A DNA stretch of 64,000 bases from a virus (Duplodnaviria > Caudoviricetes). The stretch covers positions 47,991 to 111,990 of the IMG/VR virus record IMGVR_UViG_2908764845_000006; one strand, 5' to 3'. The position numbers and the translations under genes were made by a program. Each line of letters opens with the position of its first letter. Positions within the stretch are counted from its first letter, which is position 1. Under the pieces are notes generated by a model. The model ran no database searches. It was not told where the DNA came from and saw nothing but the letters and a program-made list of their open reading frames with translations. Shown in pieces: positions 17,445-43,930 of this stretch.

Positions 17445-17930
17445 GGCCGGGGGGGCGGTTTTTCGGCTTTTTAGACATTTTTGGCCGTTTTCGGCCCTTT
17501 GGGGCCCGTTTTGGGGCCCTGCCCGGGCTTCCCTGCCCGTGATTCGGGGGCCCGGGGCCCGTCCATCTCTCCCGGGGGCCGGGGCCGGGCTTCCTGCCTG
17601 CCCGGGGCCCGTATGCCGGGCCATCTCCCGGGCTTTCCCTGCCCGGGCCCGATTCGGGGGCCCTTCCGGGCCCGGCTCCGGGCCCTATGCCTTTCCCGGG
17701 CTTCCGGGGCCCTGCTAGGGCCCTTCCGTTTCCGGGCTCCAAGTCCGGCCGGGGGCCGGTTCCCTAATCAGCGGCGTTGCTAGGGGCCCGATTCCCGGGC
17801 TTTAGGGGCCCGCACATTCGCGTTTCCGGCGCACCCGTAGGGGCCCTTTTGCACCAGTCAGGTGCATTACCGGCCCTGCCCGGGCCCGTTGGGGCCCTGC
17901 CCGGGGGCCCGTAGCATCCCGGTTCCGGCC
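17445..17930. repeat. GGGCCC/CCGGG-rich low-complexity block (left) with phased T-tracts
   Basis: Many GGGCCC and CCCGG words, A-poor plus strand; T-tracts about every 10 bp at 17459-17512. Confidence 0.8.
17850..17866. promoter_or_regulatory. operator TGCACC-N5-GGTGCA
   Basis: TGCACC AGTCA GGTGCA. Confidence 0.7.
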
Positions 17931-17931
17931 C

Positions 17932-17947
17932 TTAACGGCCAATTAAC
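17932..17947 (+). promoter_or_regulatory. CtrA-binding box
   Basis: TTAA-CGGCCAA-TTAAC matches TTAA-N7-TTAAC; degenerate second box at 17953-17968. Confidence 0.7.
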
Positions 17948-18003
17948 GCGCGTTTTCAACGGGTTAACCGGTGCACTTTTTCGCCTTTCCAGTGCATTTC
18001 ACC

Positions 18004-18033
18004 TTTACTATATGCACCCATTCGGTGCATTAT
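18004..18033 (+). promoter_or_regulatory. putative rightward early promoter with operator (18013-18029) in the spacer
   Basis: TTTACT-N18-CATTAT flanking TGCACC CATTC GGTGCA. Confidence 0.6.
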
Positions 18034-18570
18034 CTCCGTGGGGGCCCTCCCGGGGCCCTCCCGCTTCCAGCCTAGGCGGTATCGCCTCCTTAAATTTGGG
18101 GCATGGCTCTAAAGGCAGTCCCGACCCATGCACTTGCAAGGGCCCCGGGGTTGGATCGTCCGCCGCCACACCGCAGAGATGCAGGGGTCGCAATTGGCTG
18201 GAGGTGCCCGACCCCACCGTGGCCGTTCCCTTCCGCGCGCATCGTCGCCATAGGGGGCAGGTTTAAGGGCCGGGGCAGTTTGGAAAGTCGGGAGGGGCCA
18301 AAAGGATTAGCCTCACACATCGCGACCGGTCGCAGCCGGGAGCGCAGGTGCAACTCCTCCACATATTCCAACGCTTTTCAGTATCCCGCCCCGGCGCGCG
18401 TTGCGCGTGACCGATGCAAGGAGAGCCGAAGCGACTGGCGACCACCAGTGGCCTAGGCCGAGTAAAGCCAAGACCCCGTCGGACCTCATACAGGCCCGAC
18501 GGGGCTTTGCTTAGAGCGCCGAACCCCGACGCTCCAATCAAAGCCCCACCACCCACCAAAGGAGACCACG

Positions 18571-18864
18571 ATGACCAAGTACACCGCGACCTGCCAAGTC
18601 TGGACCCGCAACAAGCTGGTGACCTCGACCTACGCCATCCCGATGGAGAGCGAGGCCGCCTGCTACCGCACGGCCGGATCGTTCCGCTCCATGACCGACA
18701 CCGCCTTCGTCATCTTCATGTGCGATGGCGAGGAGTTCTTCCGGGTCGCTTGCGAAGGCTTCTACCAGAACAAGAAAGCGATCCAGGCCAAGTACCCCGA
18801 CGCTTGGCGCGATGCACCCAAGGGCAAGGGCGGACCCGGCGCCTTGCGTCGCCGCGCCGCCTGA
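18571..18864 (+). CDS. first gene of the cassette; hypothetical with basic C-terminus
   Basis: AAAGGAGACC upstream; followed by terminator-like hairpin. Confidence 0.7.
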   Translation: MTKYTATCQVWTRNKLVTSTYAIPMESEAACYRTAGSFRSMTDTAFVIFMCDGEEFFRVACEGFYQNKKAIQAKYPDAWRDAPKGKGGPGALRRRAA

Positions 18865-18885
18865 TCCACCCGACCCACTTCACCC

Positions 18886-18911
18886 GGCCCCGTTCGCATC
18901 GGGGCCTTTTT
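18886..18911 (+). terminator. intrinsic terminator-like hairpin with TTCGCAT loop
   Basis: GGCCCCG-TTCGCAT-CGGGGCC-TTTTT. Confidence 0.65.
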
Positions 18912-18939
18912 CATGCCTGCCAACCAAGGAGACCACCCG

Positions 18940-19188
18940 ATGTCCACAACGCTCAACACCGACCTGTCGCGCCGCGCCCACCAGCTCGCGGCGATCGCCG
19001 CCGAGAACGCCAACAAGTTCATCCGCCGCGAGATGCAGGCCGGTGGCCTGTCCCGTCAGCAGATCGTCGCCGAGTGCGGCGCCGGGATGAAGGCGATCGA
19101 CTTCCTCGCCGACATCCGCCGCGTCCTGTCCATCCGCCCGACGGCGAGCGATCGCCGCGTGCTCAAGCTCGCCAAGTGCGATTTCTGA
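18940..19188 (+). CDS. hypothetical protein
   Basis: AAGGAGACC upstream. Confidence 0.7.
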   Translation: MSTTLNTDLSRRAHQLAAIAAENANKFIRREMQAGGLSRQQIVAECGAGMKAIDFLADIRRVLSIRPTASDRRVLKLAKCDF

Positions 19189-19198
19189 GGAGGCCGCA

Positions 19199-19393
19199 AT
19201 GACCAAGCGACGCAAGCTCACCTATCACGGCAAGCGCTTCAACCTGCGCATCAGCGACACACCCTTCGGACTCTTCGTCCACCTCGATCCGAAGAGGGCG
19301 CCGAAGCGCGGCGGCTACAAGACCAAGTCGTGGCGCTTCGCCACGTTCAAGCACGCGACGATGTTCTGCCAAGACGTCGTCCAAGACATCTGA
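19199..19393 (+). CDS. hypothetical basic protein
   Basis: GAGGAGG RBS. Confidence 0.65.
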   Translation: MTKRRKLTYHGKRFNLRISDTPFGLFVHLDPKRAPKRGGYKTKSWRFATFKHATMFCQDVVQDI

Positions 19394-19423
19394 ACCGCAA
19401 CCCCCGACACAAGGAGACCACCC

Positions 19424-19642
19424 GTGATCGACTTCTGCAACATCGACAATGCCAAGAGCTACGCCACCGAAGCGAACCTGATGAAGGCCCTCGCGACCCT
19501 GGGCCTCGACCAGATGCGACCGGTCATCGTGCGCAACCGGGAGGGGCGCTTCACCGCGATCTTCGGCCTCCACCTCTCGGGCATGGCGTGCAGCGGCAAC
19601 GTGATGGCCGCTGCCAACCACGGCTTCAAGACCATCAACTGA
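19424..19642 (+). CDS. hypothetical protein
   Basis: AAGGAGACC upstream of GTG. Confidence 0.7.
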   Translation: MIDFCNIDNAKSYATEANLMKALATLGLDQMRPVIVRNREGRFTAIFGLHLSGMACSGNVMAAANHGFKTIN

Positions 19643-20007
19643 GGGCAACGAACATGAACACGAACAACCGGCGGACGCGCTTTCCCGAACTCGCCTACGC
19701 CCAGCACGCCAAGGACCTGTGGCGGATCATCGCCACCGACACCGATCAGGCGGTTGGCCCGCACTACAGGACGAAGGCCGAACTGCTCGCCGATCTCGAC
19801 CGCTACGCCAAGGAATTTGGTTGCTGAAACTCACGTCCGAGCGCCGCCGATGTGCGGCGCTCCAGCGTGCGCTTCCTGCACGACCGTTTCGCAGACGGTT
19901 CCTCAAACTCAAGGAGACCATCCCATGTCCTACCAACAGAAGCTCGAACTACTCCGCAAGCTCGCCCTCCAGCAATACCGCCACGGCAAGTGAGAGGAGC
20001 GACGCAC

Positions 20008-20310
20008 ATGGCTGGCACCAACACGCACTACACGATCCGCGAAGCCAAGGCGATCCTGGCCCAGCACGGCATGACGATCTCGTCCGACGAGGGCGAGTAT
20101 CGCGTCGCCTTCAAGATCGAGCACCACTCGGCGAGCGCAAGCCACGCCAGCGGCTACTGGACGGTCGGTCGCAAGACCTTCACCGGCGCCGGCGCCGCGA
20201 TGGACGCCCGCAACGCCGCCGAGGGATCGTCCTACTACACCACCCAGCTGGTCGACGCGATCGGCACCGGCATCGAGATGGCGCGGCACGAAGCTGGGAG
20301 GGCCGCATGA
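20008..20310 (+). CDS. hypothetical protein
   Basis: GAGGAG RBS; ATGA overlap with next gene. Confidence 0.65.
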   Translation: MAGTNTHYTIREAKAILAQHGMTISSDEGEYRVAFKIEHHSASASHASGYWTVGRKTFTGAGAAMDARNAAEGSSYYTTQLVDAIGTGIEMARHEAGRAA

Positions 20311-20501
20311 CCCTCACGCAGCTGCAACGCTACGAGCTCGCCCGCCGCAAGCTGGCCGATGGCAACATCGCCTTCATGGAGATGGTCACCCACAAGACCA
20401 ATCCGATGACCCGCGAGGATCTCACCGCGCTGATCAAACTCCGGCCGGAGCGCTACTCGCGCTTCTCCGGCTGGCTCGACGTCCTTCCCTCCCGCAACTG
20501 A
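20307..20501 (+). CDS. hypothetical protein
   Basis: Translationally coupled ORF. Confidence 0.6.
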   Translation: MTLTQLQRYELARRKLADGNIAFMEMVTHKTNPMTREDLTALIKLRPERYSRFSGWLDVLPSRN

Positions 20502-20517
20502 CAAGGAGACCCCGACC

Positions 20518-20742
20518 ATGGCTACCAAGATCAAGACCTTCCGCCTCGGCTCGTCCCCAATGGTGTCCGCGCCCGGCATGGTGCGATGGGCGATCGCCGG
20601 CGCCAAGTTTCCGCGGGATCGCAAGACCGTCGCCAACGTCATCGCTCAGACGTGGAGCGTCCCGATGGCCGCAGCGATCAAGCTCGTCACCCAGACCGTG
20701 CCCTTCACGGTCGAGGGCGAGACCGTCGTGTTCACCGCCTGA
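20518..20742 (+). CDS. hypothetical protein
   Basis: AAGGAGACC upstream. Confidence 0.7.
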   Translation: MATKIKTFRLGSSPMVSAPGMVRWAIAGAKFPRDRKTVANVIAQTWSVPMAAAIKLVTQTVPFTVEGETVVFTA

Positions 20743-20755
20743 CAGGGAGCCCACC

Positions 20756-20998: not shown

Positions 20999-21072
20999 CC
21001 CTCACCTCAACCCCCGATCTTCAACCCGGGCCGCCTTCGCAGGGCGGCCCTTTGCACAAGGAGACCATCCCA

Positions 21073-22280: not shown

Positions 22281-22557
22281 ATGACCCATCCCAACCTCCG
22301 CAACTTCATGGACCTGTCGACCGCGCATCTCTCGCCGACGACAAAGCGAGAAAGTCTCCGGCGAGTTCGCCCTCAACCACTGGGTCGCCGCCACGCCCTA
22401 CGGCTGGTTCCTGTACTGCGACGAGGAGAACGCCGAGGACTCGATCCCGGCCGATCTGTTCGCCTGCATGACCTACGCCCGCCAGAACGGCGCCGACTAC
22501 GTGCTGTTCGATCAGGACGCCGACGCGCTCGACGATCTGCCGACCTTCGAGAACTAG
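22281..22557 (+). pseudogene. frameshifted DUF5983-like gene
   Basis: MDLSTAHL in one frame; YGWF...LFDQDA..LPTF in another; shift near 22346. Confidence 0.6.
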
Positions 22558-22559
22558 CG

Positions 22560-22739
22560 ATGGGCCGGCACAAGGGCCGCGATCCTCCGAAGTCGCACTG
22601 CATCCGAGGTCACCGCCTGCACGGCAAGAACCTCTACGTCCAACCCGACGGCGCCCGCGTGTGCCGTCGGTGTCGCGCTCTGAGCAAGATGGACTACCTC
22701 CGCCGCCTTCGCGGCACATCACCAAGGAGAAAACGATGA
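22560..22739 (+). CDS. small Cys/His zinc-binding protein (HNH-associated type)
   Basis: SHCIRGH...RVCRRC. Confidence 0.55.
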   Translation: MGRHKGRDPPKSHCIRGHRLHGKNLYVQPDGARVCRRCRALSKMDYLRRLRGTSPRRKR

Positions 22740-24766: not shown

Positions 24767-25368
24767 CCCACTCACCCCCGTTCGCAGCGGGCTCAACAAG
24801 GAGACCGCCATCATGACGAACGAAGATCGCCGACAGCACGGCCGCGCCGTGCTGCAGACTTACGAGGCCCTGCCGGGCGTCGAGACCCGCGCCGATGGCG
24901 CCCGACCTCCGCCACACCGTGTCGATCGACGTGTTCGCGAAAGCGGTCAGCCTGTCGGAGACGCACTTCCATGCCGAGGCAGGCCGATGAGGAAATCCCT
25001 AATTATCCAGATGACACCACAATACACAGCATCTAGGAATATAAGCTAAACAACTGATTTTGCGGCGCTTTCCATACCATGAGTTTTCAGAAGCTTGCGA
25101 GACGCAGCAACAGACGCAGTGATTGACGCCGAACCGAATCTCTGCGCATAAACGAACATCCGCTTGCAGGCGGGGTGTTGTCTGTTCCGTATCCAAGCGG
25201 GCGGATGTTCTGCCTAGAAGTCCCGCCTCGGCTCCACACCGGGGCGGGCACGGCCCCTTAAAAGGAGAGCCGGATCGCAAGCCCGAACTTGGGAATGCGG
25301 GAAGCGCAGTCAGATGCCTCCCCTCCTAAAGACAGGCGGCGATTCGGTCAACGGGAAACTGTGACTCG

Positions 25369-26148
25369 ATGGATCGCAAAGAGACTGTCTACGAAATGCT
25401 AGAGCGTCGAGAACGCGAACTTACGCATGAACTCGCCGGGCTAAAGGGTGAGATTGATGTGCGCGAGAACGAACTTGCGCACGTTCGATCAGCTAGACGG
25501 CAGATTGATATGCTGGGCGGTAATGACGCCGCGCGATTTGGCAAACTTTCCGGCGTCGCTGCAACAGGAAATCCAATCGAAGATTCCGCCAGTGGACCGA
25601 CCCTTGAAGGCGTCGTTAATGTTGCAATTGGCGTTGGCTCACTCATAGCAAAAACATCTAGGATTATAGCGGAAGCACAAGACCGCAATCCATTTTTGCA
25701 GTTCGAGGGTCTCACGATTAAACAACTAATCGTCAAAGCCCTAGGTGACCATTTCCTGAATGGCGCTTCTGCCAGCGAGCTTCGAGATTTCATTGAAAAT
25801 GCGTATGACCGGAATATCGAGCGGTCTAGTCTGACGCCGCAGTTGTCGCGACTTAGGGACGAAGGAGTCGTCGAATATTTTCAGCCGCAGAGCGAAACCG
25901 AAACCGGACCAAAAGCCTTTGTGGTCGCCCGCCAGTTTAATTCAGCTATTCGTCGTTTCCCGCTTGGCGCTGAGCTTGTGGTTCCGGACGACGCTGATGC
26001 ACTTCGTATTCTCAAGAAAGAATTAGAGCCGCGTGAGCTTGAGGATTTGATAAAGCGCCGCTGGATCGTTCCGCATGGCGCGGGCCTTTGGAGACTCGCG
26101 CACCAGGGTTCCAACCATCCTACTTTGATTGAGGGAAAAGCAGGGTGA
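25369..26148 (+). CDS. IS passenger protein (coiled coil plus possible winged helix)
   Basis: 259-aa ORF, non-phage codon usage; IERSSLTPQLSRLRDEG. Confidence 0.65.
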   Translation: MDRKETVYEMLERRERELTHELAGLKGEIDVRENELAHVRSARRQIDMLGGNDAARFGKLSGVAATGNPIEDSASGPTLEGVVNVAIGVGSLIAKTSRIIAEAQDRNPFLQFEGLTIKQLIVKALGDHFLNGASASELRDFIENAYDRNIERSSLTPQLSRLRDEGVVEYFQPQSETETGPKAFVVARQFNSAIRRFPLGAELVVPDDADALRILKKELEPRELEDLIKRRWIVPHGAGLWRLAHQGSNHPTLIEGKAG

Positions 26149-26393
26149 ACGAAATACCGACTGCATCCGGGCCGTGGCACCGGTGCAGTGGGCAGCGAAA
26201 GGGTGGAGACCCGAGTAGCAATCTTGAGGCGCGAAACGGGGCGGTCACGGTAAGCCCCGAAGGAGGGTAACATGCAACAACGTGGTTGAGGCATGAAACG
26301 TGGCGCGTCATCGGGCTGGACCCCGGTGGCGCGTTACGCGCTTATCTACTAGATAGTCGTTAACTCTCAAGAATCGAGGCTAGACTAATATCA

Positions 26394-26564
26394 ATGGCCA
26401 ATCAACGTGACGAACCATATAGCGAACAAGAAGCGCAACGCCGTTTTCTCGTCACACTCAAGACAGCGCTGAATACCCCACCAAAGCCGCTCAAAATGAT
26501 GCCTCGCAAAGGCGTGGCTGCTCAATCCAAGAAACGCCGCAAGACGGCTAAGAAGTCCGCTTAG
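26394..26564 (+). CDS. small basic protein convergent on the IS1595 transposase
   Basis: MANQRDEPYSEQEAQRRF...ALNTPPKP. Confidence 0.5.
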   Translation: MANQRDEPYSEQEAQRRFLVTLKTALNTPPKPLKMMPRKGVAAQSKKRRKTAKKSA

Positions 26565-26617
26565 GGCGTTTCTTCCGCCAGCGCAGAAACCTGCCGGCCT
26601 GATATCTAAAGACCGGC

Positions 26618-26938
26618 TCAGTGAGTTTGATGATAGGTCAGGCGCTTGCCTTCCACGGCCTTGATTGCGGCTTTGGTGCGGTCGGTATCGCTGTAGCCAA
26701 GACCAACACGATGGTTGTAGCGGAAATCAAACTCGGCAAGGTAGCGATGCAAATGCTTTTCTTTGCAATGCTGGTAGACACCAGTCATGCCGCGCTTGAA
26801 GATCGAAAATGATCCTTCGATCGTGTTCGTGTGAACGTCTCCGCGAGCATATTCCTTGGCGCTATGTCGCACGGTTTCATGCGAAGCAAAATGCTGATCC
26901 GCGCCGCTGTAAAGTTTGCTTTCGTCCGTCATCAAGGT
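26618..26938 (-). pseudogene. truncated IS1595 (ISXO2-like) transposase
   Basis: TLMTDES...VHTNTIEG.FS..KR...HLHRYLAEFDFRYN motifs; N-terminal half missing. Confidence 0.88.
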
Positions 26939-27640
26939 CCTGATCGCCTGCGAGTACACCGGCACCGTGCGGCGCGCATTCGCCGCACGGGGCCATGCTG
27001 TCTGGTCCTGCGACCTGCTTCCCTCGCTCGATGGCAGCAACCGCCACATCGTCGACGACGTCCGCAACGTGCTCGACGGCGACTGGGACTTCCTCATGGT
27101 GGCGCACCCGCCGTGCACCCGGCTCGCGAACAGCGGCGTGCGCTGGCTCGACGAGCCGCCCGGTCGACTGACACGGCCGAGCACTACTCGACGAAGGAGA
27201 TCGCCGCCTACGCCACGATGAACCGGCGCGAGCGCCTGGACTTCATCTGGTTCAAGCTCGAGGAAGGCGCCAAGCTGTTCTCCACGCTCTGGGACGCGAA
27301 GATACCGCGCAAAGTGCTGGAGAACCCGGTGATGCACAAGCACGCCAAGAAGCGCATCCGTCGCTACCGCGAGTTCTCGCAGTCGATCCAGCCGTGGATG
27401 TTCGGCGACTTCGAGACCAAGCGGACCTGCTTCTGGACCGACTTCGAGGGCGAGGACGCGCCGCCGCTCAAGCCGACGTACCGGACGATGGAGGAGTGCC
27501 GCAGGGCACTCAACCTGCCGCGCGGCGCCAAGCCGGTCGACCGCGTCCACAAGGCAGCACCCGGCCCGAAGCGATGGGCCGAGCGCAGCAAGTTCTTCCC
27601 CAAGGTGGCGGAGCAACTCGCCATCCAATACGCCGGATAA
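26931..27640 (+). pseudogene. phage DNA cytosine methyltransferase-like gene, start lost and frameshifted
   Basis: KVLIACEYTG, AHPPCT, ENP and QPWMFG motifs; extra AC at 27171-27174 shifts the frame. Confidence 0.75.
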
Positions 27641-32075: not shown

Positions 32076-33434
32076 ATGAACGCTCATGTCAAGATCGGGC
32101 AAGAGATCGCCCGCCAACGCAGCCTGCCCGAGATCATCGCCGAATACGAGGCGAAGGCGCAGGCAATCTCCGACGGCCTGCGCGCCTGCGGCAAGGCGCA
32201 ACTCGACCTGCAGACGACGGCAACGCTTGCCGGCGTCTACGGCAACAGCCACCTCGACTTCAAACTGCCGTCCGAGCGAGACCTGCACCAGCACCTGCTC
32301 AGGTCCGCGTGGCTGCACGCCTACGCTGGCTGCAACATCGAACTCCTGTCGTCGCCGACCGACAAGAGCCTGTGGAAGCAGCAACTGGAGAAGCTCCCGC
32401 CCTTCACGCTGGAGAACATCCGCGAGCTGTTCGGTAAGTTCCTGATCGACCCCCGCGCCAGTATGCTGCGCGGGCTCGCCGAGGTGTTCTGTGGCCTGGA
32501 CCAAGCCTTCAAGAGCCACGACGTCGTCAAGATCGGCGTCAAGGGTCTGCCGAAGCGCATCATCATGTCGGGCTTCTCCAAGTATTCGACCTACGGTCGG
32601 GAAAAGCTGGAGACGGTCCTCAATGCGCTGGCTGCCTATCAGGGCAAGCCATTGGTCGATCACGTCGAGCTGAGCGCTATCTTCGACAACGAGGACGCGC
32701 TGCTCAAGGCAGGGACGCTGACGAAGTACGACAAGACCACGATCGACCATCCCGCCCGTGGCGTCCGCCTGCGCACATTCTCCAACGGCAACGGTCACCT
32801 GTTCTTTGAGCCCGACACGCTCAAGGACGTGAACCTGGCCCTCGCCGAGTTCTACGGCGACGTGCTGCCCGACACCCCGGACGAGAACCCGGTCAAGGCG
32901 AAGTCGACCGCGGTCTCCAAGGACCTGCAGTACTACCCGACGCCGGCGAAGGTGGTGGACGACGTGATCTATCCGATCGCTCACCTGCTCAAGGGCGCCA
33001 AGGTGCTGGAGCCGAACTGCGGCTGTGGCCGCTTCATGGTGGCGCTGCGCAAGAAAGGCGCCGACGTCTACGGCGTGGAAGTCGACGCCGGCCGCGCAGC
33101 GCTGTGCCGCGCACTGGGCCTGACGGTGTTGCACGCAAACTTCCTCGAGCTCGCGCCGCGCGCGGAGTTCAAGTTCGTGTTCATGAACCCACCGTTCTAC
33201 GGCAGGCACTACGCACTGCATGTCCGGCACGCCTTCGACTTCCTTGAGCCGGGCGGCACGTTGAAGGCGATCCTTCCGATCACCGCGCGCGACCACGGCC
33301 TACTCGATGATCTGATCGGCAAGCGAGATAGCTGGAACAGCGCGTGGAACGACCTTCCGGTCGGCTCCTTCTCGGAGAGCGGAACCAACATCAACACCAC
33401 CGTGCTCACCCTCCACAAGCCGGGCCGGAGGTGA
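32076..33434 (+). CDS. DUF4942-like domain fused to an amino (N6/N4) DNA methyltransferase
   Basis: QYYPTP, VLEPNCGCG and MNPPF motifs; FSNGNGHL. Confidence 0.85.
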   Translation: MNAHVKIGQEIARQRSLPEIIAEYEAKAQAISDGLRACGKAQLDLQTTATLAGVYGNSHLDFKLPSERDLHQHLLRSAWLHAYAGCNIELLSSPTDKSLWKQQLEKLPPFTLENIRELFGKFLIDPRASMLRGLAEVFCGLDQAFKSHDVVKIGVKGLPKRIIMSGFSKYSTYGREKLETVLNALAAYQGKPLVDHVELSAIFDNEDALLKAGTLTKYDKTTIDHPARGVRLRTFSNGNGHLFFEPDTLKDVNLALAEFYGDVLPDTPDENPVKAKSTAVSKDLQYYPTPAKVVDDVIYPIAHLLKGAKVLEPNCGCGRFMVALRKKGADVYGVEVDAGRAALCRALGLTVLHANFLELAPRAEFKFVFMNPPFYGRHYALHVRHAFDFLEPGGTLKAILPITARDHGLLDDLIGKRDSWNSAWNDLPVGSFSESGTNINTTVLTLHKPGRR

Positions 33435-35378: not shown

Positions 35379-35508
35379 GCACATTCGACCGAGACCTCAC
35401 GTTCTTCATGATCGGCGCCGCTGTCGGCGCCCTCATGGCGATCGGGTGGCAACTTCACTAACCAATCCCAACGGGCTTCGCAGGCCCATCATCAAGGAGA
35501 CCAAGACT

Positions 35509-36747
35509 ATGAGTCATTTCGCAGTTCTAGTGATCTCGCCGACCGAGCTCACCAAGGAAACGATCAAGCCGATGCTGCAGCCTTGGCACGAGTTCGAGTG
35601 CACCGGCTTCGATGACCAATATGTCGTCGATGTCGACAAGACTGAAGAGGTCCTCGCCGAGTATCGCGAGCAGACCCGCTCGATGATCCGTTCCCCTGAC
35701 GGCATTCAGGTCGCGGCCCACGACGATCGGTTCTACCGCAACCCGACCGAGCAGGAGCAGCAGATCATGGGCAAAGTCCCGGGCACGGGAAGTCGCGGCG
35801 ATTTGTCGTGGACGAGCAAGGACTGGGGTGACGGCCGGGGCTATCGCGGCAAGGTGCACTTCGTGCCTGACGGATATAGCAAGGTGGAAGTGCCGTGCAG
35901 CGAGGTCATGACCATCGCCGAGTTTATCGACTGGTGGCACAGCGGCAAGATCGTTCGCAGCGAGGCCGAGATCGACCGGAGCGGCGAGCACAAATACGGC
36001 TACGCGCTCATTGCCGAGAACGGCGATTTGATCCGGATGATCGACCGCACCAACCCGAACCGGAAATGGGACTGGTGGGCGGTTGGTGGCCGCTGGTCGG
36101 GCATGCTCGCCGCTCCCGGCTACGATCCCGAGAAAGACCCGGCCAATCAGGAGACCTGCACCCTGTGTGGCGGTTCCGGCAAGCGTACGTTTCGGGCGGA
36201 GGAGATCGTCTGCAACAAGTGCGATGGCAGGGGCACTGCGGTCAAGTGGCCGAGCAGCTGGGTCGACACCGGCAACCACGCCCAGCTCAAGGACATCCCG
36301 CTGGAGGCGATCCGCAACCACGCCGAGATCGAGGCGCTCAAGCGGTTCGACGAGGCGCAGGAGGTGATCGCCGGCCGGGGCTTCAAACGGTGGGACGAGG
36401 TCAAGGCCGACAATGGCGGCGACATCGACAAGACCCGCGAGGCCTACCGCGGCCAGCAAGTGCTCAAGGACCTCGAGGAAGCCAAGCTGGTCAGCTTCTT
36501 CGATGACGACGAGATCATCGGACTGTTCTGGATGTCACGCGCAGATCGGGCCACCCGCGCTCGCAACAACGCGCTTCGCACCTTCGCCGTCGTCAAGGAC
36601 GGTCAGTGGTACGAGCGCGGCGAGATGGGTTGGTTCGGGTGCGTCGCTGACGAGAAGGACTCCGAACAATGGTCGCGCGAGTTCGCGGCCCTGCTCGACG
36701 GCCTGCCGCCCGAAACCTGGCTCGCCGTCGTCGACTGCCACATCTGA
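35509..36747 (+). CDS. conserved phage protein with inserted DnaJ-type CxxCxGxG finger
   Basis: MSHFAVLV...KWDWWAVGGRW...CTLCGGSG..CNKCDGRG...VDCHI. Confidence 0.75.
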   Translation: MSHFAVLVISPTELTKETIKPMLQPWHEFECTGFDDQYVVDVDKTEEVLAEYREQTRSMIRSPDGIQVAAHDDRFYRNPTEQEQQIMGKVPGTGSRGDLSWTSKDWGDGRGYRGKVHFVPDGYSKVEVPCSEVMTIAEFIDWWHSGKIVRSEAEIDRSGEHKYGYALIAENGDLIRMIDRTNPNRKWDWWAVGGRWSGMLAAPGYDPEKDPANQETCTLCGGSGKRTFRAEEIVCNKCDGRGTAVKWPSSWVDTGNHAQLKDIPLEAIRNHAEIEALKRFDEAQEVIAGRGFKRWDEVKADNGGDIDKTREAYRGQQVLKDLEEAKLVSFFDDDEIIGLFWMSRADRATRARNNALRTFAVVKDGQWYERGEMGWFGCVADEKDSEQWSREFAALLDGLPPETWLAVVDCHI

Positions 36748-36808
36748 TCTGAAACCCCAACCGGGGCCGCTTCGCAGGCGGCCCCATCATTCCACAAGGA
36801 GACCAACT

Positions 36809-38764
36809 ATGACTGACATCACCATCAACGGCCTGACCCGCGCCGACATCAAGGCGGGCGAGACCTACGAGTTCCGCATGGGCGGCAGCGTCCAGAGTAT
36901 CGAGGTGCGCGCCGTCGGCGACGACGGCTTCATGACCCAGTTCGGCCCGATGCCGTGGAGCAACGCCGGAATGTTGACCCGGCCGACCCCGGCGACGACC
37001 ATGGACACGCCGGAGATCAGGAAGATGGTCGCGGATGCGGCCGCCGATGCCGAGGCCGCGCCCCCGAAGAGCCGCAGGACTAAGGCGAAGGCCGAAGCCG
37101 AAGCCAAGGCCGATGTTGCGGCCGAGCCGCCTGCCCCGGAGCCCGCAGCGGTCCCGGCTCCCGCCAAGAAACCGCCCCTGACCCGCAGCCAAGAGATCGC
37201 GGCCGACGTGGCGGCGCTGCTCCGCGCTCGCAATCCGCTGTTGTGGATCGTCACCCGGGAGGAGGCCCGGGCCGAGCGCTACCTCGTGAGCGCCGCCGCC
37301 GCGGCTGGCTTCGTCCCGCGCATGTGGGATTGCGGTCAGGGCGTCACCGATGTCGCGGCCAAGGCCGAGAGCATCGGCTCCGCCGACATCGGCGAGACGC
37401 TCGGCGCCATCCGCGCCCGGGCCGACGCCAAGTCCGACCGCGGCGCGTGGATCATGCGCGATCTGCCGCCGTGGCTGGCCGGGACCATTGGCATGGTGGT
37501 CTGCCGACAGGTGCGCAACCTGGCCCGCTTCCTGCCGGGCGTGGAGCGCGATGGCGCGCAGGCGCTGATCGTGCTGTCCCCGTCGGGCGATGTCCCGCCG
37601 GAGCTCGCCAACCACGCCACGGTGATCGAGTGGCCGATGCCGGATCGCGCCGAGATCGCCAGCCTGCTGGACGACACGATCAACGGCCTGCCCGACGAGA
37701 TGCGCGAGTCGGCAGCGCCCAACGGCACCCGGGAGGCGGCGATCGACTCCGCGATCGGGCTCACCGGCGAGGAAGCACAGGCCTGCTACTCGAAGTCGCT
37801 TGTGCAGCTGCGCAAGATCGACCCGACCGCCGTGTCGAGGGAGAAGAAGCGCGTCATCGCTCGCGAGAAGGTCCTCGAATGGTTCGACCCGATCCCCGGC
37901 GGCCTTGCGGCCGTCGGCGGTCTCGGCAACCTCAAGGACTGGCTGATGCAGCGTAAGCTCGCCTACTCCCCGGCCGCGCGTGCCTACGGCCTACCGGCGC
38001 CGAAGGGCTGCTTCCTCGTCGGCATCCCGGGCTGCGGAAAGTCGCTGATCTCGAAGGCGACCGCCACCGCCTTCGATGCGCCGCTGCTCAAGCTCGACTT
38101 GGGCGCGCTCAAGGGCAAGTTCGTCGGCGAGAGCGAGGCCAACATGCGCAAGGCGCTTCGCACCATCGAGGCGATTGGCCGCTGCGTGGTCTGGATCGAC
38201 GAGATCGAGAAGGCCCTGACCGGGGCCACCGCCGGCGGCTCGGACGGCGGCGTCTCGTCGGACCAGCTCGGCGCGCTGCTGCAGTGGATGCAGGAGCGCA
38301 CCAGCGAGTCGTTCGTGATCGCCACCGCCAACTCGGTGGCGACCCTGCCGCCGGAGCTGCTCCGCAAGGGCCGCTTCGACGAGTTCTGGTTCGTCGACCT
38401 GCCGAACCCGAACGAGCGCGTTGAGATCCTCAACGCAGGGCTCAAGGCGCACGGCCGCAGCTTCTCGGACATCAAGGCCGAGGAGATCGCCAACGTGGTT
38501 GCCGCGACCGACGGCTTCACCGGCTCGGAGATCGCAGCCATCGTCCCGGACGCCCTGTTCGCAGCGTTCGCCGACGGCGGCCGCCAGATCACCTGTGTCG
38601 ATCTGGTGAAGGCGGCGAAGGCCGTGACCCCGCTCTCGGTCACCGCGAAGGACAAGATCGCGGAGCTGCGCAACTGGGCAGCTGGCAAGGCCCGTCGCGC
38701 CACCGACGAGTGGACTGCGGAGACGGCAAAGGTTCGCTCTACCGGCCGCGCCCTCGACATCTGA
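36809..38764 (+). CDS. AAA+ ATPase (Ycf46-like)
   Basis: GIPGCGKS, WIDEIEK, ATAN and LPPELLRKGRFDE motifs. Confidence 0.88.
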   Translation: MTDITINGLTRADIKAGETYEFRMGGSVQSIEVRAVGDDGFMTQFGPMPWSNAGMLTRPTPATTMDTPEIRKMVADAAADAEAAPPKSRRTKAKAEAEAKADVAAEPPAPEPAAVPAPAKKPPLTRSQEIAADVAALLRARNPLLWIVTREEARAERYLVSAAAAAGFVPRMWDCGQGVTDVAAKAESIGSADIGETLGAIRARADAKSDRGAWIMRDLPPWLAGTIGMVVCRQVRNLARFLPGVERDGAQALIVLSPSGDVPPELANHATVIEWPMPDRAEIASLLDDTINGLPDEMRESAAPNGTREAAIDSAIGLTGEEAQACYSKSLVQLRKIDPTAVSREKKRVIAREKVLEWFDPIPGGLAAVGGLGNLKDWLMQRKLAYSPAARAYGLPAPKGCFLVGIPGCGKSLISKATATAFDAPLLKLDLGALKGKFVGESEANMRKALRTIEAIGRCVVWIDEIEKALTGATAGGSDGGVSSDQLGALLQWMQERTSESFVIATANSVATLPPELLRKGRFDEFWFVDLPNPNERVEILNAGLKAHGRSFSDIKAEEIANVVAATDGFTGSEIAAIVPDALFAAFADGGRQITCVDLVKAAKAVTPLSVTAKDKIAELRNWAAGKARRATDEWTAETAKVRSTGRALDI

Positions 38765-38876
38765 TCCACAAACCGCATGAGACCCGCACTGTTACGACAG
38801 TGCGGGAAGTGTCCATCCCGTGTACTATCAAACCGCGGTTTCGCAGACCGCATCATCCCGCAAGGAGACCCACACT

Positions 38877-39716
38877 ATGTCGATCATCAACACCACCATC
38901 CGTCCGGGCCGCATCGTCGTGCTGCGGACCACGATCACCGGCAACGTCAACTACACCAAGTCGGTCATCGAGGCCGAGCGCGTCGAGGCGGACGGCGCCA
39001 AGCGCGCCAAATGGGAGACCGAGCGCGTCGTCATCAACCCGGACGAATACGAGGAGGCCACCACGCTGCGCGACAAGGTCCGGCAGACCATCGCCGGCCT
39101 GTGCATCAAGACCACCTTCGGCCTGCTCTGCTCGGAGGAGAAGGTCGAGAAGCTCGAAGCCGCGTTCACCGAGGCGCGCCGGCTCGCCGACGAGTTCAAC
39201 GGCCGCGCCTCCACGACCCAGATCAACGTGTTCGTGATCGCGGGCCGGGTGGCAGCCGATGACGTCGAGGCGATGCGGGCGATCAACTCGGAGGTCCGCG
39301 AGCTGATGCAGGACATGGAGACCGGCCTGCAGAACCTCGATGCGAAGGCGGTGCGCGATGCCGCCAAGAAAGCGCGGCTGCTCGGCTCGATGCTCTCCGA
39401 CGACGCATCGGAGCGGGTCAAGCAGGCCATCGAGACCGCCCGCAAGGCGGCCAACGACATGGTCAAGGCCGCTGAGACGAGCTCGGCCGAGATCGACCTG
39501 CAGGCGATCCGCAAGATCACGGAGAGCCGCACCGCGTTCCTCGACATCACCGGCGACAACGTCGAGATCGCGGCTCCCGTGCACGGCGCCCGCGCGCTCG
39601 ACTTCGAGCCGACCGAGGGCCAGGGGCCCGCGTCCGCGCCCGAGGTCGACGAGGAGGTCGCGCCGATCGCTCCGGCCGCCCCGGCCGTCAAGGTGCCGCA
39701 GCTCGAGATGGACTAA
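38877..39716 (+). CDS. helical hypothetical protein (AAA-associated)
   Basis: Hairpin and AAGGAGACC upstream; coiled-coil character. Confidence 0.75.
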   Translation: MSIINTTIRPGRIVVLRTTITGNVNYTKSVIEAERVEADGAKRAKWETERVVINPDEYEEATTLRDKVRQTIAGLCIKTTFGLLCSEEKVEKLEAAFTEARRLADEFNGRASTTQINVFVIAGRVAADDVEAMRAINSEVRELMQDMETGLQNLDAKAVRDAAKKARLLGSMLSDDASERVKQAIETARKAANDMVKAAETSSAEIDLQAIRKITESRTAFLDITGDNVEIAAPVHGARALDFEPTEGQGPASAPEVDEEVAPIAPAAPAVKVPQLEMD

Positions 39717-39788
39717 CGACAACGACCCCGGCGGGCTTCGCAGGCCCGCCGGCTTCGCTTCAAACCCCAACATTTCAAGGAGACCAAC

Positions 39789-40133
39789 ATGGCTTGTGAC
39801 ACATGGCGTGCCAACGAGAACCAGACCCTTACCGAGCGCAAGGAAGAGATCAAGCGCGTGATCGACCTCGTCGCGCAGGAGATCGTCAAGGGCCGCGTCA
39901 AGCCCAAGGTGGGCGCGCAGGGCGCGATCACCTTCGAGGGACTGGACGCCGTCACCGACCGGCGCGGCGTCACCGACGCCTGCGTCTACCGCCGGATCAT
40001 GTCGACCGGATCGGCAATGGCGAAGCAGCAGCTCGCCCGCGCCGAGCAACTGGCCGGACGCCGCGTCGATGCGAAGGCGCTCGCCGGCGGCCACCACTCT
40101 CACGATGGAGGCAAGACATGGCACAAGCATTGA
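39789..40133 (+). CDS. hypothetical protein (AAA-associated)
   Basis: Hairpin and AAGGAGACC upstream; His-rich C-terminus. Confidence 0.7.
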   Translation: MACDTWRANENQTLTERKEEIKRVIDLVAQEIVKGRVKPKVGAQGAITFEGLDAVTDRRGVTDACVYRRIMSTGSAMAKQQLARAEQLAGRRVDAKALAGGHHSHDGGKTWHKH

Positions 40134-40553: not shown

Positions 40554-40598
40554 CACCCCACCGCCTGTTCGCAGCAGGCGCATTCAAGGAGACCATCA

Positions 40599-40799: not shown

Positions 40800-40993
40800 G
40801 CGAGAAGAGCGTCATCGAGGACATCATCGAAGCCGCAGCCAAGCACGGCCGCGAGAGTGAGCCCGACCACGAGGTGGGCGACCTGCAGGACCTGCTGCGG
40901 GTGGCGTGGAAGATCATGGAGCCGCGGCAGCGCATCCGGTTCTGGAACCACGACACGACGACAGAGCTGCTCAAAGAGTGGGGAGGCATGTGA
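40796..40993 (+). CDS. hypothetical protein
   Basis: ATGA overlap; EPDHEVGDLQD. Confidence 0.6.
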   Translation: MSEKSVIEDIIEAAAKHGRESEPDHEVGDLQDLLRVAWKIMEPRQRIRFWNHDTTTELLKEWGGM

Positions 40994-41390
40994 TGGCCTT
41001 CCAGTACAACGGCGACAAGTGCCCGAAGTGCCGGCGCTACATGATCGTGGCTCCGCCCATCCCGGCGAACTCGAACGATCAGGTCAAGTGCCAGGTCTGC
41101 GGCCATCAAGGCACGCTCGACGAGTTCGCCGAGGCATACGACCGCGACTTCCCGGAGGACGAATGACCAAGTCCCCCGAGCAGTGGCTCGCTTTTGGCGC
41201 TGGCGGCCAACTTCCTCAGCGCCGCGCGTCTCAGCGGCGAAGAGCGGCGGCAAGCCCAGTCGATTGCCGCCGGCCTGCAGGAGCGCGCCCAGCACAGTCG
41301 CGAGCGTGCCGCGCAGGCCCCCAAGACGGAGGGCGTCATCGGCATCGCTGACGCCCTCAAGCGAAGCGCGAAGTAACAGAGGAGATCATC

Positions 41391-41606
41391 GTGCGCTTCT
41401 ATCAAGTCCACCGTCTCGCCGAAGGCGGCCAGAGCGCCGGCTACGAATACTTCACCAGTAAGCGGGCCGCCGATCGGGCCGTCTCGGATTGGAGGGACGA
41501 CGATCTCGAACAGATCGCCAACGTTGAGCCGATCGACATCACGCCGACGAGGGCCGGCATCCTGCTGGCCCTCAATACCTACGCCAACCACGCCGACAAC
41601 GGCTGA
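41391..41606 (+). CDS. hypothetical protein
   Basis: GAGGAGA RBS. Confidence 0.6.
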   Translation: MRFYQVHRLAEGGQSAGYEYFTSKRAADRAVSDWRDDDLEQIANVEPIDITPTRAGILLALNTYANHADNG

Positions 41607-41650
41607 CCCCGGCCCGTTCGCAGCGGGCTTCAACAAGGAGACCAAAGACC

Positions 41651-42196
41651 ATGACGACACGTAAGCAGATGCTCGGTCGCGATCTCGCGACCACCCTCGA
41701 CGGGATCACCCCTCCGCAGGAGCAGTTCATCGGGGCGGAGCAGAAGCGGCTCTACGAGCAGGAGGAGAAGCGCAACGACGCCATCAACGCCTGCGCCAAG
41801 GAGTGGGCTCGCATCTTCAAGGTCGACGGCGCCGACCTGTGGACCCGGACGATGCCGCAGGCGCTGTTCGACACGCTGGAGGGCTTCTCGCCGCAATGCG
41901 CCATCGTGGCGGCCGAGGCGTTCCTCAAGCAGTTCGGATGGAAGATCGAGCGGCCGGGCGACGAGACGCGCGCCGACGCCGTGCACGAGGCCCTCACCGG
42001 CCTCGTCGACGAGGTGGAGAAGCTCTACCACCGCGCACCGCGTGAGAGCGACCTGCCCCATGAGCCCGGCGTCTACGCCGCCAACATGCCGGACAGTCAA
42101 CGGTGGTCCTGCCCGTACCACCCGAACGAGATCGCCGAGCACATCCGCTCGAAGATCGACGGCATCGTCGAGATCGCGGTCAATCCCGCTCGCTGA
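41651..42196 (+). CDS. hypothetical protein
   Basis: Hairpin and AAGGAGACC upstream. Confidence 0.7.
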   Translation: MTTRKQMLGRDLATTLDGITPPQEQFIGAEQKRLYEQEEKRNDAINACAKEWARIFKVDGADLWTRTMPQALFDTLEGFSPQCAIVAAEAFLKQFGWKIERPGDETRADAVHEALTGLVDEVEKLYHRAPRESDLPHEPGVYAANMPDSQRWSCPYHPNEIAEHIRSKIDGIVEIAVNPAR

Positions 42197-42325
42197 AATA
42201 AAGGTGGGGCTGGAGTTCGCAGCTCCAGCCCCGGCTCAAGGGAGGTAAACCGCCAAGGAGACCATCCACGGGGTCCATCAACCAAGAGCATCCACATCAC
42301 CTAACACAAACAAGGAGACCTTCAA

Positions 42326-42609
42326 GTGACCAACACCGAAACGGTGCAAGAACAGCTGGGGATACTGTCTGGGTCCTCGTCATTGACACCCGGCACGGAA
42401 CCGACGTGGAGACCTTCAAGACAAGGGAGGCCGCGGACAAGCACCTCTACGACTATTGCGACGAGTGGTGGGATCGCGAGTTCGGCGCCGCCAGCCGGCC
42501 ATCGGACGACAATCTGGTCGAAGCCTACTGGAATCGCATGAGCGACGAGGGCGAGGAGTGGTACGTGCTGGAGGAATGTAAAGTGAAGAGCCTCGAGGTC
42601 ACCGAGTAG
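42326..42609 (+). pseudogene. frameshifted acidic hypothetical gene
   Basis: AAGGAGACC start; the plausible protein continues in another frame after the G-run at 42358-42361. Confidence 0.55.
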
Positions 42610-42759
42610 GACCTCGCAAAGGAATTGGGCGCGGCGACTTCGCAGGTCGCCACGCCCAATCATAAGCGCCTGCCGATCCCAAGGAGACCATCCCCACGAC
42701 CGGCGTCGCTTTCAAATGCAACATAAGGAGGAGCAATTGAGATTGCTATACGCGAAACG

Positions 42760-43140
42760 ATGACAGTTCGGTCCTACACGATCCTGGAAATGCTGGGCGC
42801 CGTGCGACGGCTCCCAGCGCAGATGCCCGAGTCGGACACCCTTCCGACCGGCGGTTATCAGACCCACCAGCAGCACTGGGTCACATGGCTAAGCGAGTAC
42901 GACGGTCCCGGTGGATACGGCCGGAACAGCTGGGATGTTGACGCGAGGTCGGTCTACGCGCGCCTCTGCAACGCCTACATGATCGTCTATCTCAACGAGG
43001 CGGCCGGCGCCGATCCGGCCGCGATCCGGCAGACGATCCGGGAGATATTCGCGAAGGGCAACAATCGCGCCCAGACCGAAGCCAAGATCGCCCGCGAGCG
43101 CCATCCATGGGACGGGCTGACCAAACTACTGTTCCGATAG
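42760..43140 (+). CDS. hypothetical protein
   Basis: QHWVTWLSEYDGPGGYGR. Confidence 0.65.
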   Translation: MTVRSYTILEMLGAVRRLPAQMPESDTLPTGGYQTHQQHWVTWLSEYDGPGGYGRNSWDVDARSVYARLCNAYMIVYLNEAAGADPAAIRQTIREIFAKGNNRAQTEAKIARERHPWDGLTKLLFR

Positions 43141-43187
43141 CATTCCGAAAAAGGCCAAGGGCCCCGGCGGGTTAGTCCCTGCCGGGG

Positions 43188-43580
43188 TCACTCCCGACCG
43201 GTGACGGCGTCCAGCCAGTGCCAGTCGCGACACGGAACCACCTTCCTTGAGGCGGCTGGGTCCGCCGTCTTTCGCCTCCTCACCATCAGACCCCGCGGAC
43301 GCCGCCCGCTCGGCTTCGCGTTTAGCTCCGGAACGATCTCGCGGATCAGTTCCGCCTCGCGCTCCCTCAGCTCTGACGGATCGCATTCGAGCAGGATTTC
43401 CAACGTCGGATACCCCCATTCATCGAAGGCCCGCTGAACGTCGCGCGTATGCCGACCTTCGCGCATGTCCTTACGATGCAGTGAGAATCTCGTCCCGACG
43501 TTCGTAGAACATCCAATGTACCGCGCCCCTCCCCTGAACCGCAGCAAGTAGACCCCGCAAACGACCGTCTCGCGCGCCAT
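43188..43580 (-). CDS. GIY-YIG nuclease family protein
   Basis: GVY...YIG.S...R...H...E...LN motifs. Confidence 0.8.
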   Translation of the reverse strand: MARETVVCGVYLLRFRGGARYIGCSTNVGTRFSLHRKDMREGRHTRDVQRAFDEWGYPTLEILLECDPSELREREAELIREIVPELNAKPSGRRPRGLMVRRRKTADPAASRKVVPCRDWHWLDAVTGRE

Positions 43581-43632
43581 GTTTTTTTGCTCTTCCGTAG
43601 GTATTTAGGTATTCCAAAAAGAGGTATCTCGG

Positions 43633-43657
43633 TATAGGTAAGCATTGCTTACCTATA
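43633..43657. repeat. AT-rich 25-bp palindrome
   Basis: TATAGGTAAGCA-T-TGCTTACCTATA. Confidence 0.85.
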
Positions 43658-43667
43658 TGGCCGTTTT

Positions 43668-43930
43668 AAGGGCCGTACAGGGCCCCGGGGCCGGGCCCGG
43701 CCCCTTGGTAGCACCGGGCCTGTTTTAACGCGCCCTTGCCTGCCCTCCCGGCCACGGTTCCGGGGCCCTAAAGTAAGGCTAGCTGCCATTCCGGGGCCCG
43801 GCCCCCGGGGCCGGTTCCTGCCCGGTTCCATAGGGGCCCGGGGGCCGGTTCCCTGCCCGTTTCCGGGCCCTGCCCGGGCCCCCTACGGGGGCCGGGGGCC
43901 GGTCCGGTTCTGCCAATGCTTCCCGGCCCT
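43668..43930. repeat. GGGCCC/CCGGG-rich low-complexity block (right)
   Basis: Same words and strand bias as the 17.5-kb block (GGGGGCCGGTTCCCT, TTAACGCGC and CCCTGCCCGGGC shared). Confidence 0.8.

Follow-up and report, generated by a model that had tools for sequence, protein, structure and literature searches.

Gene layout around the arrays

The window analyzed here comprises 64,000 bases (positions 47,991 to 111,990), the last part of a single 111,990-base virus record, IMG/VR IMGVR_UViG_2908764845_000006 (G000), which is classed as a provirus with an estimated completeness of 100%. Two arrays of short GC-rich words, array A (core 17445-17930, plus strand) and array B (43668-43930, plus strand), stand at the two ends of a cassette of mostly small rightward genes and are the subject of this work. 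Positions are those of the window unless given as genome positions. Genes were called crudely by third-position GC content (GC3), and functions were taken from Pfam and PHROG scans.

The late module reads leftward, from the terminase genes (genome 43975-46216) to the portal, capsid, sheath, tape measure, and baseplate genes. Further leftward small genes, split by an IS66 element, reach window position 16931. A block of rightward genes occupies ~18.1-43.1 kb and is followed by a leftward replication module, which encodes ThyX, a phosphatase, a primase-helicase, RuvC, and a GcrA-like protein. Finally, a rightward arm opens with a cI-like helix-turn-helix (HTH) gene (53289-54092) and closes with a tyrosine integrase gene at the end of the record. 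The genome is ~65% GC, and its major capsid protein is 64% identical to the capsids of two Brevundimonas phages. Because the phage carries a GcrA homologue, its gene content points to an alphaproteobacterial host.

An original prediction made from the sequence had placed some 60 rightward genes between two strand switches, with a compositionally odd block close to each switch. GC3-based calling gave a lower gene count: 39 plus-strand open reading frames (ORFs) in 18100-43150, the cassette itself spanning 18571-43140. The median product is 97 amino acids long, yet proteins of 783, 452, and 433 amino acids are among them. The blocks do lie near the switches, but one gene intervenes on each side. 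A small plus-strand ORF (17036/17159-17350) separates block A from the divergent switch at 16931/17036, and a minus-strand GIY-YIG gene separates block B from the convergent switch at 43140/43188.

Composition and word content of the arrays

Both odd blocks proved to be real. Together they hold 27 of the 49 copies of GGGCCC in the window, a word for which 100 shuffles of the window gave a mean of 32.7 and a maximum of 47. Twenty copies fall in 17502-18145 and seven in 43680-43881, leaving 22 in the remaining ~63 kb. The A-poverty that had been noted on the plus strand was borne out as well: A makes up 6.0% of block A (17445-17930) and 8.0% of block B (43668-43930), compared to 18.7% of the window, and across the 111,990-bp record, the two 250-bp windows with the least A (2.8% and 7.2%) are those of the blocks. 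The reported lack of GATC and TCGA was correct as a count, with no copy of either word in the blocks vs ~9 per kb in the window, but it is not an independent oddity. These words are missing because the blocks lack A; base composition predicts just 0.8 and 0.5 copies, and we rejected their absence as a separate signal.

The blocks were also said to share words, and a k-mer comparison agreed: 46 10-mers are common to both in the direct orientation and 15 in the inverted one, compared to an average of 0.36 and never more than 5 for 2000 random 706-bp control segments. For example, GGGGGCCGGTTCCCT occurs only at 17751 and 43840, and TTAACGCGC has three copies: one at 17943 (13 bases past the end originally given for block A), one at 43725, and a third at another position. 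What A and B have in common is limited to words of no more than 17 bases, with no alignable repeat, and the best repeat family consisted of four copies of 17 nt (at least 81% identity, spacings of 357, 21, and 150).

Array A is composed of GGGCCC, CCCGGG, and GCCCGGGC words separated by T-rich spacers. At its left edge are six phased tracts of 3-5 T (17459-17512, plus strand), whose starts are spaced by 9, 10, 10, 10, and 11 bp, and the alternation of weak and strong bases (W/S) in the core has its period peak at 10.25 bp. The style of the array extends to ~18063, a further GGGCCC follows at 18140, and the tail of the array (18041-18063, plus strand) holds two GGGGCCCTCCC units. Array B has the word style and orientation of array A and a W/S period peak of 11.5 bp.

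Periodicity of GC by codon position was absent across 17350-18550, and Rfam at the gathering score returned only two tRNAs in the window, with no family at the arrays. A small minus-strand ORF has its 3' tail in part of block B, where it runs on because the T-poor strand has no stop codons. Otherwise, the blocks are non-coding.

GATTC, a GANTC word, is found at 17541, 17651, 17790, and 43938. The three copies in block A have the contexts CCCG(T)GATTCGGGGGCCC (twice) and CCCGATTCCCGGGC (once), and the density there is ~4 per kb vs 0.85 per kb genome-wide. The GcrA-like protein of the phage is encoded at 51420-51977.

Arrays in related proviruses and strains

Relatives were collected with a capsid search of IMG/VR, from which the best 80 of 256 were kept. 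Two large proviruses among these best 80, G001 (125.5 kb, capsid 85%) and G002 (136.3 kb, capsid 81%), are syntenic with G000 in reverse orientation, from the baseplate genes (in G001, from the ligase gene) to the genes just left of the integrase. Closer strains were available as contigs only, from the run X3 and from one further sample (X4/X5); stretches without contig cover in X3, X4, and X5 (e.g., 18.4-23.8 kb and 25.1-26.4 kb) were left out of the evidence.

A look for the blocks in related phages had been proposed together with the original prediction, and it came out positive: arrays of the same style stand at the same two positions and in the same orientation in both G001 and G002. The G002 arrays are at 48760-48400, between the homologue of the 277-amino-acid gene and the cassette, and at 23810-23580, immediately past the counterpart of the final gene of the cassette. 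G001 has a head array (64800-64480), a foot array (37640-37480), and a third array inside the cassette (59970-59710), which has an intergenic position within a single operon and immediately precedes a ribosome-binding site. The distance from head to foot is 26.2, 27.2, and 25.0 kb in the three proviruses. All seven arrays have one orientation and contain 5-11% A on the sense strand of the cassette, and blastn gave no alignment across the arrays between G000 and either G001 or G002. The cassette between them turns over, with a tblastn match for 20 of its 39 ORFs in G001 and for 12 in G002, while the arms stay syntenic. In the closer strains, X3 and X4/X5 contigs cover array A with ~3-5% substitutions and many indels; contig pieces spanning array A plus 1.4-2 kb to its left contained 19 and 64 gaps.

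Searches with the blocks and their neighbors returned little. An exact 17-mer had no match in viral contigs, and blastn with the block regions gave nothing relevant among phages and no match among 72,556 plasmids. The 277-amino-acid protein beside block A had no relatives in viral, genome, or metagenome contigs, a 120-amino-acid protein beside the blocks had none in viral contigs, and the primase-helicase had none in genome contigs. The small proteins adjoining the arrays matched nothing in Pfam or NCBIfam. No GGGCCC cluster was present in the first 50,000 of the 61,859 bases of Brevundimonas phage Polewnik, whose capsid is 64% identical.

Pattern scans of viral contigs were also performed. 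CTGCCC..CTGCCC..CTGCCCGGGC was found at 52 loci, G001 being the sole array of this kind. Three copies of GGGGCCC were found at no fewer than 118 loci, and among the matches listed many appeared by eye to be Gly-Pro-type coding sequence or tandem repeats.

GGGCCC-rich arrays that seem non-coding by eye were also seen on other IMG/VR contigs not known to be related (L239, L225/L217, and L162), for example as GGGCCCGGGCCC units flanking palindromes or as a series of GGGGCCC-TCA-GGGCCCC hairpins. High-GC phages may carry arrays of this sort more often than has been recognized.

Shared vocabulary and helical phasing

The palindromic word of the arrays depends on the phage: it is GGGCCC in G000 and G002 and CCCGGG/GGCC in G001, whose head and foot arrays are built more from CTGCCC, GGTTCC, and CCCGGG. 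Some words are common property. CCCTGCC is present in all seven arrays, and over the seven, CCTGCCC has 33 copies and CCGGTTC has 13, with no reverse complement of either.

In six of the seven arrays, the top spectral peak of the A/T positions lies at 10.25-11.5 bp. We compared this with token shuffles, which preserve every GC run and every spacer. The observed summed power at ~11 bp was 47.1, whereas the shuffles gave 21.4 +/- 4.6; this is more than five standard deviations above them, and none of 300 shuffles reached it. Phasing at ~11 bp points to DNA that would be bent around a protein or bound along one face by it.

At the RNA level, the same shuffles gave little to distinguish the arrays. 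Minimum folding energy was within ~2 standard deviations of the token shuffles in all seven and was not consistently lower. Lenient hairpin-plus-T sites numbered 36 on the top strand vs 6 on the bottom strand over the seven arrays; token shuffles yielded ~30 on the top strand, so there was no clear enrichment.

Operator-like palindromes and the cassette

The perfect palindrome TGCACC-N5-GGTGCA occurs at five places in 112 kb. Two copies flank the right end of block A, at the head of the cassette: TGCACCAGTCAGGTGCA at 17850-17866, inside array A and with 0 mismatches, and TGCACCCATTCGGTGCA at 18013-18029, followed by GCATTATCTCC, which has counterparts in G001 and G002. In both of those proviruses the head array is likewise followed by the same operator palindrome. 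A further copy, TGCACCAGATAGGTGCA at 53221-53237, lies between the cI-like HTH gene and the divergent gene 52884-53225. The others are at 54410-54426, upstream of the next rightward operon, which encodes a YqaJ-type exonuclease, and at 16114-16130, at the 3' end of the leftward 277-amino-acid gene. Because the palindrome is shared by the cassette head and the cI-like gene, the rightward cassette is probably a repressor-controlled early operon, silent in the lysogen, with these sites as putative operators. Between the two palindromes at the cassette head is the only perfect copy of TTAA-N7-TTAA in the 112-kb record (17932-17946), a pattern that resembles a CtrA box.

The cassette had been proposed to be a first-injected region for host takeover or anti-defence. 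That proposal is partly supported. The putative operators, the mosaic makeup, and the methyltransferase, HNH, and AAA-ATPase genes make it plausibly an early accessory or anti-defence operon; first injection is unsupported. On the plus strand, the genes concerned encode an HNH protein (22281-22736), a methyltransferase fragment (27236-27629), a DUF4942 methyltransferase (32076-33431), and an AAA ATPase (36413-38761) with its three partner families.

Direct repeats of another kind, (T)GGGACAT, lie just upstream of the head arrays of the relatives. By eye there are seven in G001 (64960-64880) and about ten, in both orientations, in G002 (49000-48740). In G000, a 12-bp tandem repeat containing TGTCCC lies at 16220-16265, inside the 277-amino-acid gene. 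These repeats may be sites for another regulator.

Phased protein-binding DNA as a possible role

Our preferred reading, which we hold tentatively and with somewhat less than even confidence, is that the arrays are helically phased, protein-binding architectural or boundary DNA. Array A sits at the cassette head, just upstream of the operators and the likely early promoter, and array B lies between the end of the cassette and the convergent replication operon. The arrays would work as double-stranded DNA, that is, as multi-site platforms bent around or coated by a DNA-binding protein. As boundary or insulator elements, they would keep the late and replication modules apart from an early accessory operon under repressor control and would not be virion termini.

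The binder might be one of two phage proteins or a host protein. A winged-helix ORF (43782-44078, minus strand) lies beside array B and reads its Gly/Pro/Arg-rich tail from the array; each of the three proviruses keeps its 55-amino-acid N-terminal domain next to the foot array, with identities of 51% and 48%. An alignment of this protein found only G001 and G002 in viral contigs and nothing in metagenome contigs. The other candidate, by inference only, is a stand-alone OmpR-type winged-helix protein (10887-11300, minus strand; Trans_reg_C, just below the Pfam cut-off), which is kept in G001 (47%) and G002 (36%). PhoB and OmpR boxes consist of a 7-bp word and a 4-bp A/T spacer repeated every ~11 bp, and winged-helix proteins occupy such sites head to tail. 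The arrays are similar in their ~11-bp period, their GC word with a short T-rich spacer, and their direct orientation, and the phage encodes an OmpR-type winged helix. Unlike these boxes, the arrays are far longer (160-490 bp) and have no consensus box, and binding to them is putative.

Several points weigh against this reading. The mid-cassette array of G001 (G1_M) has no 11-bp peak, and given its place within an operon and before a ribosome-binding site, an RNA-level or terminator role fits it no less well. The arrays also consist of degenerate repeat units, with a vocabulary that changes from phage to phage. The 36:6 strand excess of hairpin-plus-T sites is what a one-way stack of terminators would show, though composition alone explains it. 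The candidate binders are tied to the arrays by position or presence alone; the winged-helix model is moderate (predicted local distance difference test score of 67), and it matches the folds of MarR, DtxR, and PhiH1-repressor-like proteins only weakly (E of 0.05 or more). Finally, the conservation evidence comes from a small clade, namely three proviruses and two strain sets.

What this small clade of large temperate alphaproteobacterial phages keeps at both ends of the cassette is a pair of phased arrays that are of one style and cannot be aligned. Such a pattern would be the signature of selection for DNA shape or multi-site protein binding and not for sequence. Mosaic accessory cassettes of the anti-defence type turn over fast in phages, and how they are marked and insulated is poorly understood; if a binding protein were found, the arrays would offer a tractable model for prophage domain boundaries.

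In a more elaborate version, the two arrays would act as a pair of boundaries, coated and bridged by a phage winged-helix protein that would hold the cassette as an insulated loop, one that keeps its 25-27-kb length despite gene turnover, and the FtsK-orienting words within the arrays (see below) would engage the host translocase. We think this quite a long shot. Some of the explanations considered here and below are not mutually exclusive.

Terminators, a replication origin, or recombination linkers as possible alternatives

An unlikely but substantial alternative to phased boundary DNA is that the arrays are stacked hairpin terminators or stabilizers of RNA 3' ends, akin to repetitive extragenic palindromes (REPs) and the bacterial interspersed mosaic elements (BIMEs) made of them. 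Adjacent GGGCCC words form 6-8-bp GC hairpins followed by T. Array A would then stop rightward read-through into the repressed cassette and array B read-through from it into the convergent replication genes, and the middle array of G001, which does lie between genes of one operon, would split that operon; or else mRNA 3' ends would be protected. Ordinary terminators of the genome use the same words (e.g., GGGGGCCCCTATAGGGCCCCCGTTTT at 54268 and GGGGCCCGCTTCGCAGGCGGGCCCCTT at 62643), a GGGCCG-TTT-CGGCCC hairpin begins or ends several arrays, and the strand excess of hairpin-plus-T sites described above has the expected direction. However, the token shuffles recreate most of that excess, with folding energy not under theirs, and a strict terminator scan found only three sites in 16800-18700 (1.9 expected) and two in 43000-44400 (0.8 expected). 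Furthermore, T runs within the arrays are mostly 1-3 bases long, and ~11-bp phasing has no role in RNA.

REPs and BIMEs are clusters of GC-rich imperfect palindromes between genes, often 3' of transcription units, which are reported to bind architectural proteins and gyrase and to stabilize mRNA. REPs form host-wide families of 35-40-bp units in alternating orientation and are linked to RAYT transposases. In the arrays, too, GC-rich imperfect palindromes able to form hairpins are clustered between genes, for example GGGCCC-TTCC-GGGCCC at 17658-17673 and GGGCCCGG-CT-CCGGGCCC at 17668-17685. The arrays differ in being confined to two or three loci per phage genome, in their 6-8-bp words with T spacers, and in their single orientation and ~11-bp phasing.

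A replication origin seems a good deal less likely still. Array B, together with an adjoining AT-rich element, would be the lytic origin, and array A would be a second cis site, for which the ori/crr pair of phage P4 is an analogue. The AT-rich element (43598-43657) is conspicuous in a 65% GC genome: AGGTAT occurs at 43599, 43607, and 43622, beside a perfect palindrome with 12-bp arms, TATAGGTAAGCA-T-TGCTTACCTATA. GGTATTTAGG is kept at the matching place before the foot array in G001 and G002, the primase-helicase gene (47621-50008) is 3.7 kb away from array B, and the winged-helix gene adjoins. Iterons are well-conserved 17-22-bp units about two helical turns apart. With iterons and the P4 pair, the arrays share direct short repeats in two clusters kilobases apart, a nearby primase-helicase, and the AT-rich element by array B. 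In contrast, the array words are degenerate and not well-conserved iterons, and there was no excess of power at 20-23 bp, the A/T indicator being below the shuffle mean. The third array of G001, inside the cassette, also counts against an origin. GC skew has no turn at array B, and its cumulative maximum lies near array A in three genomes. As this maximum coincides with a switch in gene direction, it is not informative, and we rejected GC skew as a marker of origin or terminus.

We give rather little credence to the idea that the arrays are recombination linkers, that is, word-rich microhomology at module boundaries for the swapping of cassettes, with any other function secondary or absent. 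Contigs of two related strains match through array A and then diverge, within the tail of the array, at 18058 (X4, with 958 further letters) and at 18060 (X3, ending 119 letters on). X3 and X4 contigs also bridge replacements or skips within the cassette (e.g., 28433/28854, 33397/33636, and 33886/34381). The turnover of cassette content between syntenic arms fits such swapping, and the phage encodes a YqaJ-type exonuclease. On the other hand, X3 and X4/X5 may share one event, so their break points are not necessarily independent, and immediately to the right of the array region, at 18502-18938, nucleotide similarity to G001 is found again. Linkers alone would also leave the helical phasing and the conserved orientation unexplained.

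An FtsK-orienting word in the arrays

The commonest oriented 8-mer of the arrays is CCCTGCCC, with 20 copies and no reverse complements. Its complement, GGGCAGGG, orients FtsK in E. coli, Vibrio, and Pseudomonas and is known as an FtsK-orienting polar sequence (KOPS) or FtsK recognition sequence (FRS). In terms of the KOPS octamer GGGNAGGG, the CCCTGCCC variant is present in five of the seven arrays, and the other three N variants are absent. GGGCAGGG is reported to be a polar architecture word in most Proteobacteria (PMC3384302), and it is also described as polar in Azospirillum and Sinorhizobium in two bioRxiv preprints. In the lambdoid prophages of E. coli, KOPS are reported to be 86% co-oriented and to occur at chromosomal density (PMC3603311).

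We ranked all 7-mers and 8-mers of the three proviruses, with the arrays masked, for having the same polarity in plus- and minus-gene regions. CCCTGCCC came first of 1394 8-mers (11:1 in plus-gene and 14:0 in minus-gene regions), and CCTGCCC came first of 1272 7-mers (26:4 and 33:11). Thus, GGGCAGGG is almost solely on the bottom strand whatever the gene direction (25:1 pooled). Of the 29 dispersed copies in G000, 27 are inside ORFs. Genome-wide polarity of the FtsK word is a kind of adaptation already described, as for the lambdoid prophages (PMC3603311).

We regard it as improbable that the arrays are clusters of this word, serving as dense loading pads for host FtsK that align the prophage with chromosome polarity or recruit FtsK. 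The one-way use of the word within the arrays, its top rank outside them, and its presence inside ORFs would suit such a role, and the core word of the arrays is the exact complement of GGGCAGGG and is polar in all three proviruses regardless of gene direction. But every array would then be expected to carry the 8-mer, and the two G002 arrays (G2_A and G2_B) have no copy; G2_B holds the 7-mer core GGCAGGG in both directions. The two G000 blocks have 7 FtsK-word sites vs 24 copies of GGGCCC (27 with the tail of array A to 18145), the scarcity of A in the arrays could explain why the word runs one way there, and no FtsK_gamma domain is encoded by G000, G001, or G002. Density differs as well: known KOPS are scattered at ~1 per 10 kb (PMC3384302 and PMC3603311), whereas the arrays that have the word pack 2-6 copies into 160-490 bp, and no natural KOPS cluster of that density was found in the literature searched. 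If the arrays did engage FtsK, this would be a phage concentrating the chromosome-polarity word of its host.

The Chi sequence of Caulobacter, GCGGTGGT (PMC5443536), was considered as a polar word and rejected. Its top:bottom counts in the three proviruses were 9:3, 3:9, and 1:9, which is not consistently polar, and it may not be the Chi of this host. Among the positions listed for the three proviruses, its copies formed no cluster at the arrays.

The arrays as proposed genome ends

It is tempting to misread the blocks as genome ends, but there is hardly any case left for virion termini or packaging signals there, with the 26-kb cassette as a long direct terminal repeat or first-injected region. 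Two same-orientation blocks do bracket mostly small early genes, at a similar spacing (25-27 kb) in three relatives, and phased bends occur at some pac sites. Against this, the record is a provirus with a tyrosine integrase, its cassette is under repressor-type operators, its terminase genes lie ~19 kb from one block and 45 kb from the other, the cassette of G001 contains a third array, and the blocks share no alignable repeat beyond words of up to 17 bases. The runs that cover this DNA are all contigs, and no positions at which molecules start or stop were reported from them. These claims of the original prediction found no support, although they are not refuted. A pac or cos site, as a target of TerS, would be expected within or next to the gene for the small terminase subunit; the genes for TerL and the TerS candidate occupy genome 43975-46216, and the arrays are at 65.4 and 91.7 kb of the genome. 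TerL matches the Terminase_3, Terminase_6N, and Terminase_6C profiles, and the nearest phage TerL is at most 42% identical; the matches to the Terminase_3 and Terminase_6N profiles may count against the terminus reading. The long terminal repeats and injection-stop region of T5, the terminal redundancy of SPO1, and the terminal short-repeat arrays of T7 belong to virulent phages with fixed ends. Here, too, repeat- and palindrome-rich DNA bounds small early genes of a possible host-takeover type; the differences are the integrase provirus, the repressor operators at the cassette head, the distant terminase, and the mid-cassette array in G001.

Other features of the region

The small ORF upstream of array A (17036-17350, plus strand) shows a coding signal only from ~17140 and was not found in G001 or G002. 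The scan for TGCACC-N5-GGTGCA placed a one-mismatch operator within it, at 17091-17107. At the other end of the cassette, the GIY-YIG homing-endonuclease-like gene (43188-43580, minus strand) separates the cassette from the GGTAT repeats. No tblastn match to it was returned from G001 or G002, and as neither has a counterpart at that place, it looks like a recent insertion.

Within the cassette, a four-gene module (35446-40130) encodes a DnaJ-type zinc-finger protein, the 783-amino-acid AAA ATPase, and two families of unknown function with strong PHROG matches. Over 65% of its length, the ATPase has 46% identity with gp96 of the Corndog-group mycobacteriophages. A stretch of low GC (53-55%) at ~24996-26932 carries a fragment of an IS1595-type transposase on the minus strand, beside the methyltransferase fragment at 27236-27629. 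Around it, contigs of related strains cease to resemble G000, with break points at 24995 and 26933 in X4 and at 24806 and 27696 in X3.

Among the leftward small genes is a complete-looking IS66 element (12263-14770), with HTH_Tnp_1, IS66 Orf2, and IS66 transposase ORFs. Genes for tRNA-Met (7280-7356) and tRNA-Phe (8889-8964) are on the minus strand. The left part of the record, outside the window (genome 704-7900, L001), resembles a cargo end, with 57-62% GC and genes for a DDE transposase, proteins with HD, TIR, and HicA-toxin domains, and a fragment of an ATP-dependent ligase. To the right, a 332-amino-acid protein (57061-58056) has weak DGQHR (ParB/DndB-like) matches and no counterpart in G001 and G002.

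Ribosome-binding words of the CAAGGAGACCA type are strongly one-sided in G000, G001, and G002. With the arrays masked, the strand counts of AAGGAGAC in these proviruses are 28:3, 44:4, and 44:7, respectively. By eye, the rightward early genes seem to use a Shine-Dalgarno context of the CAAGGAGACCA type.

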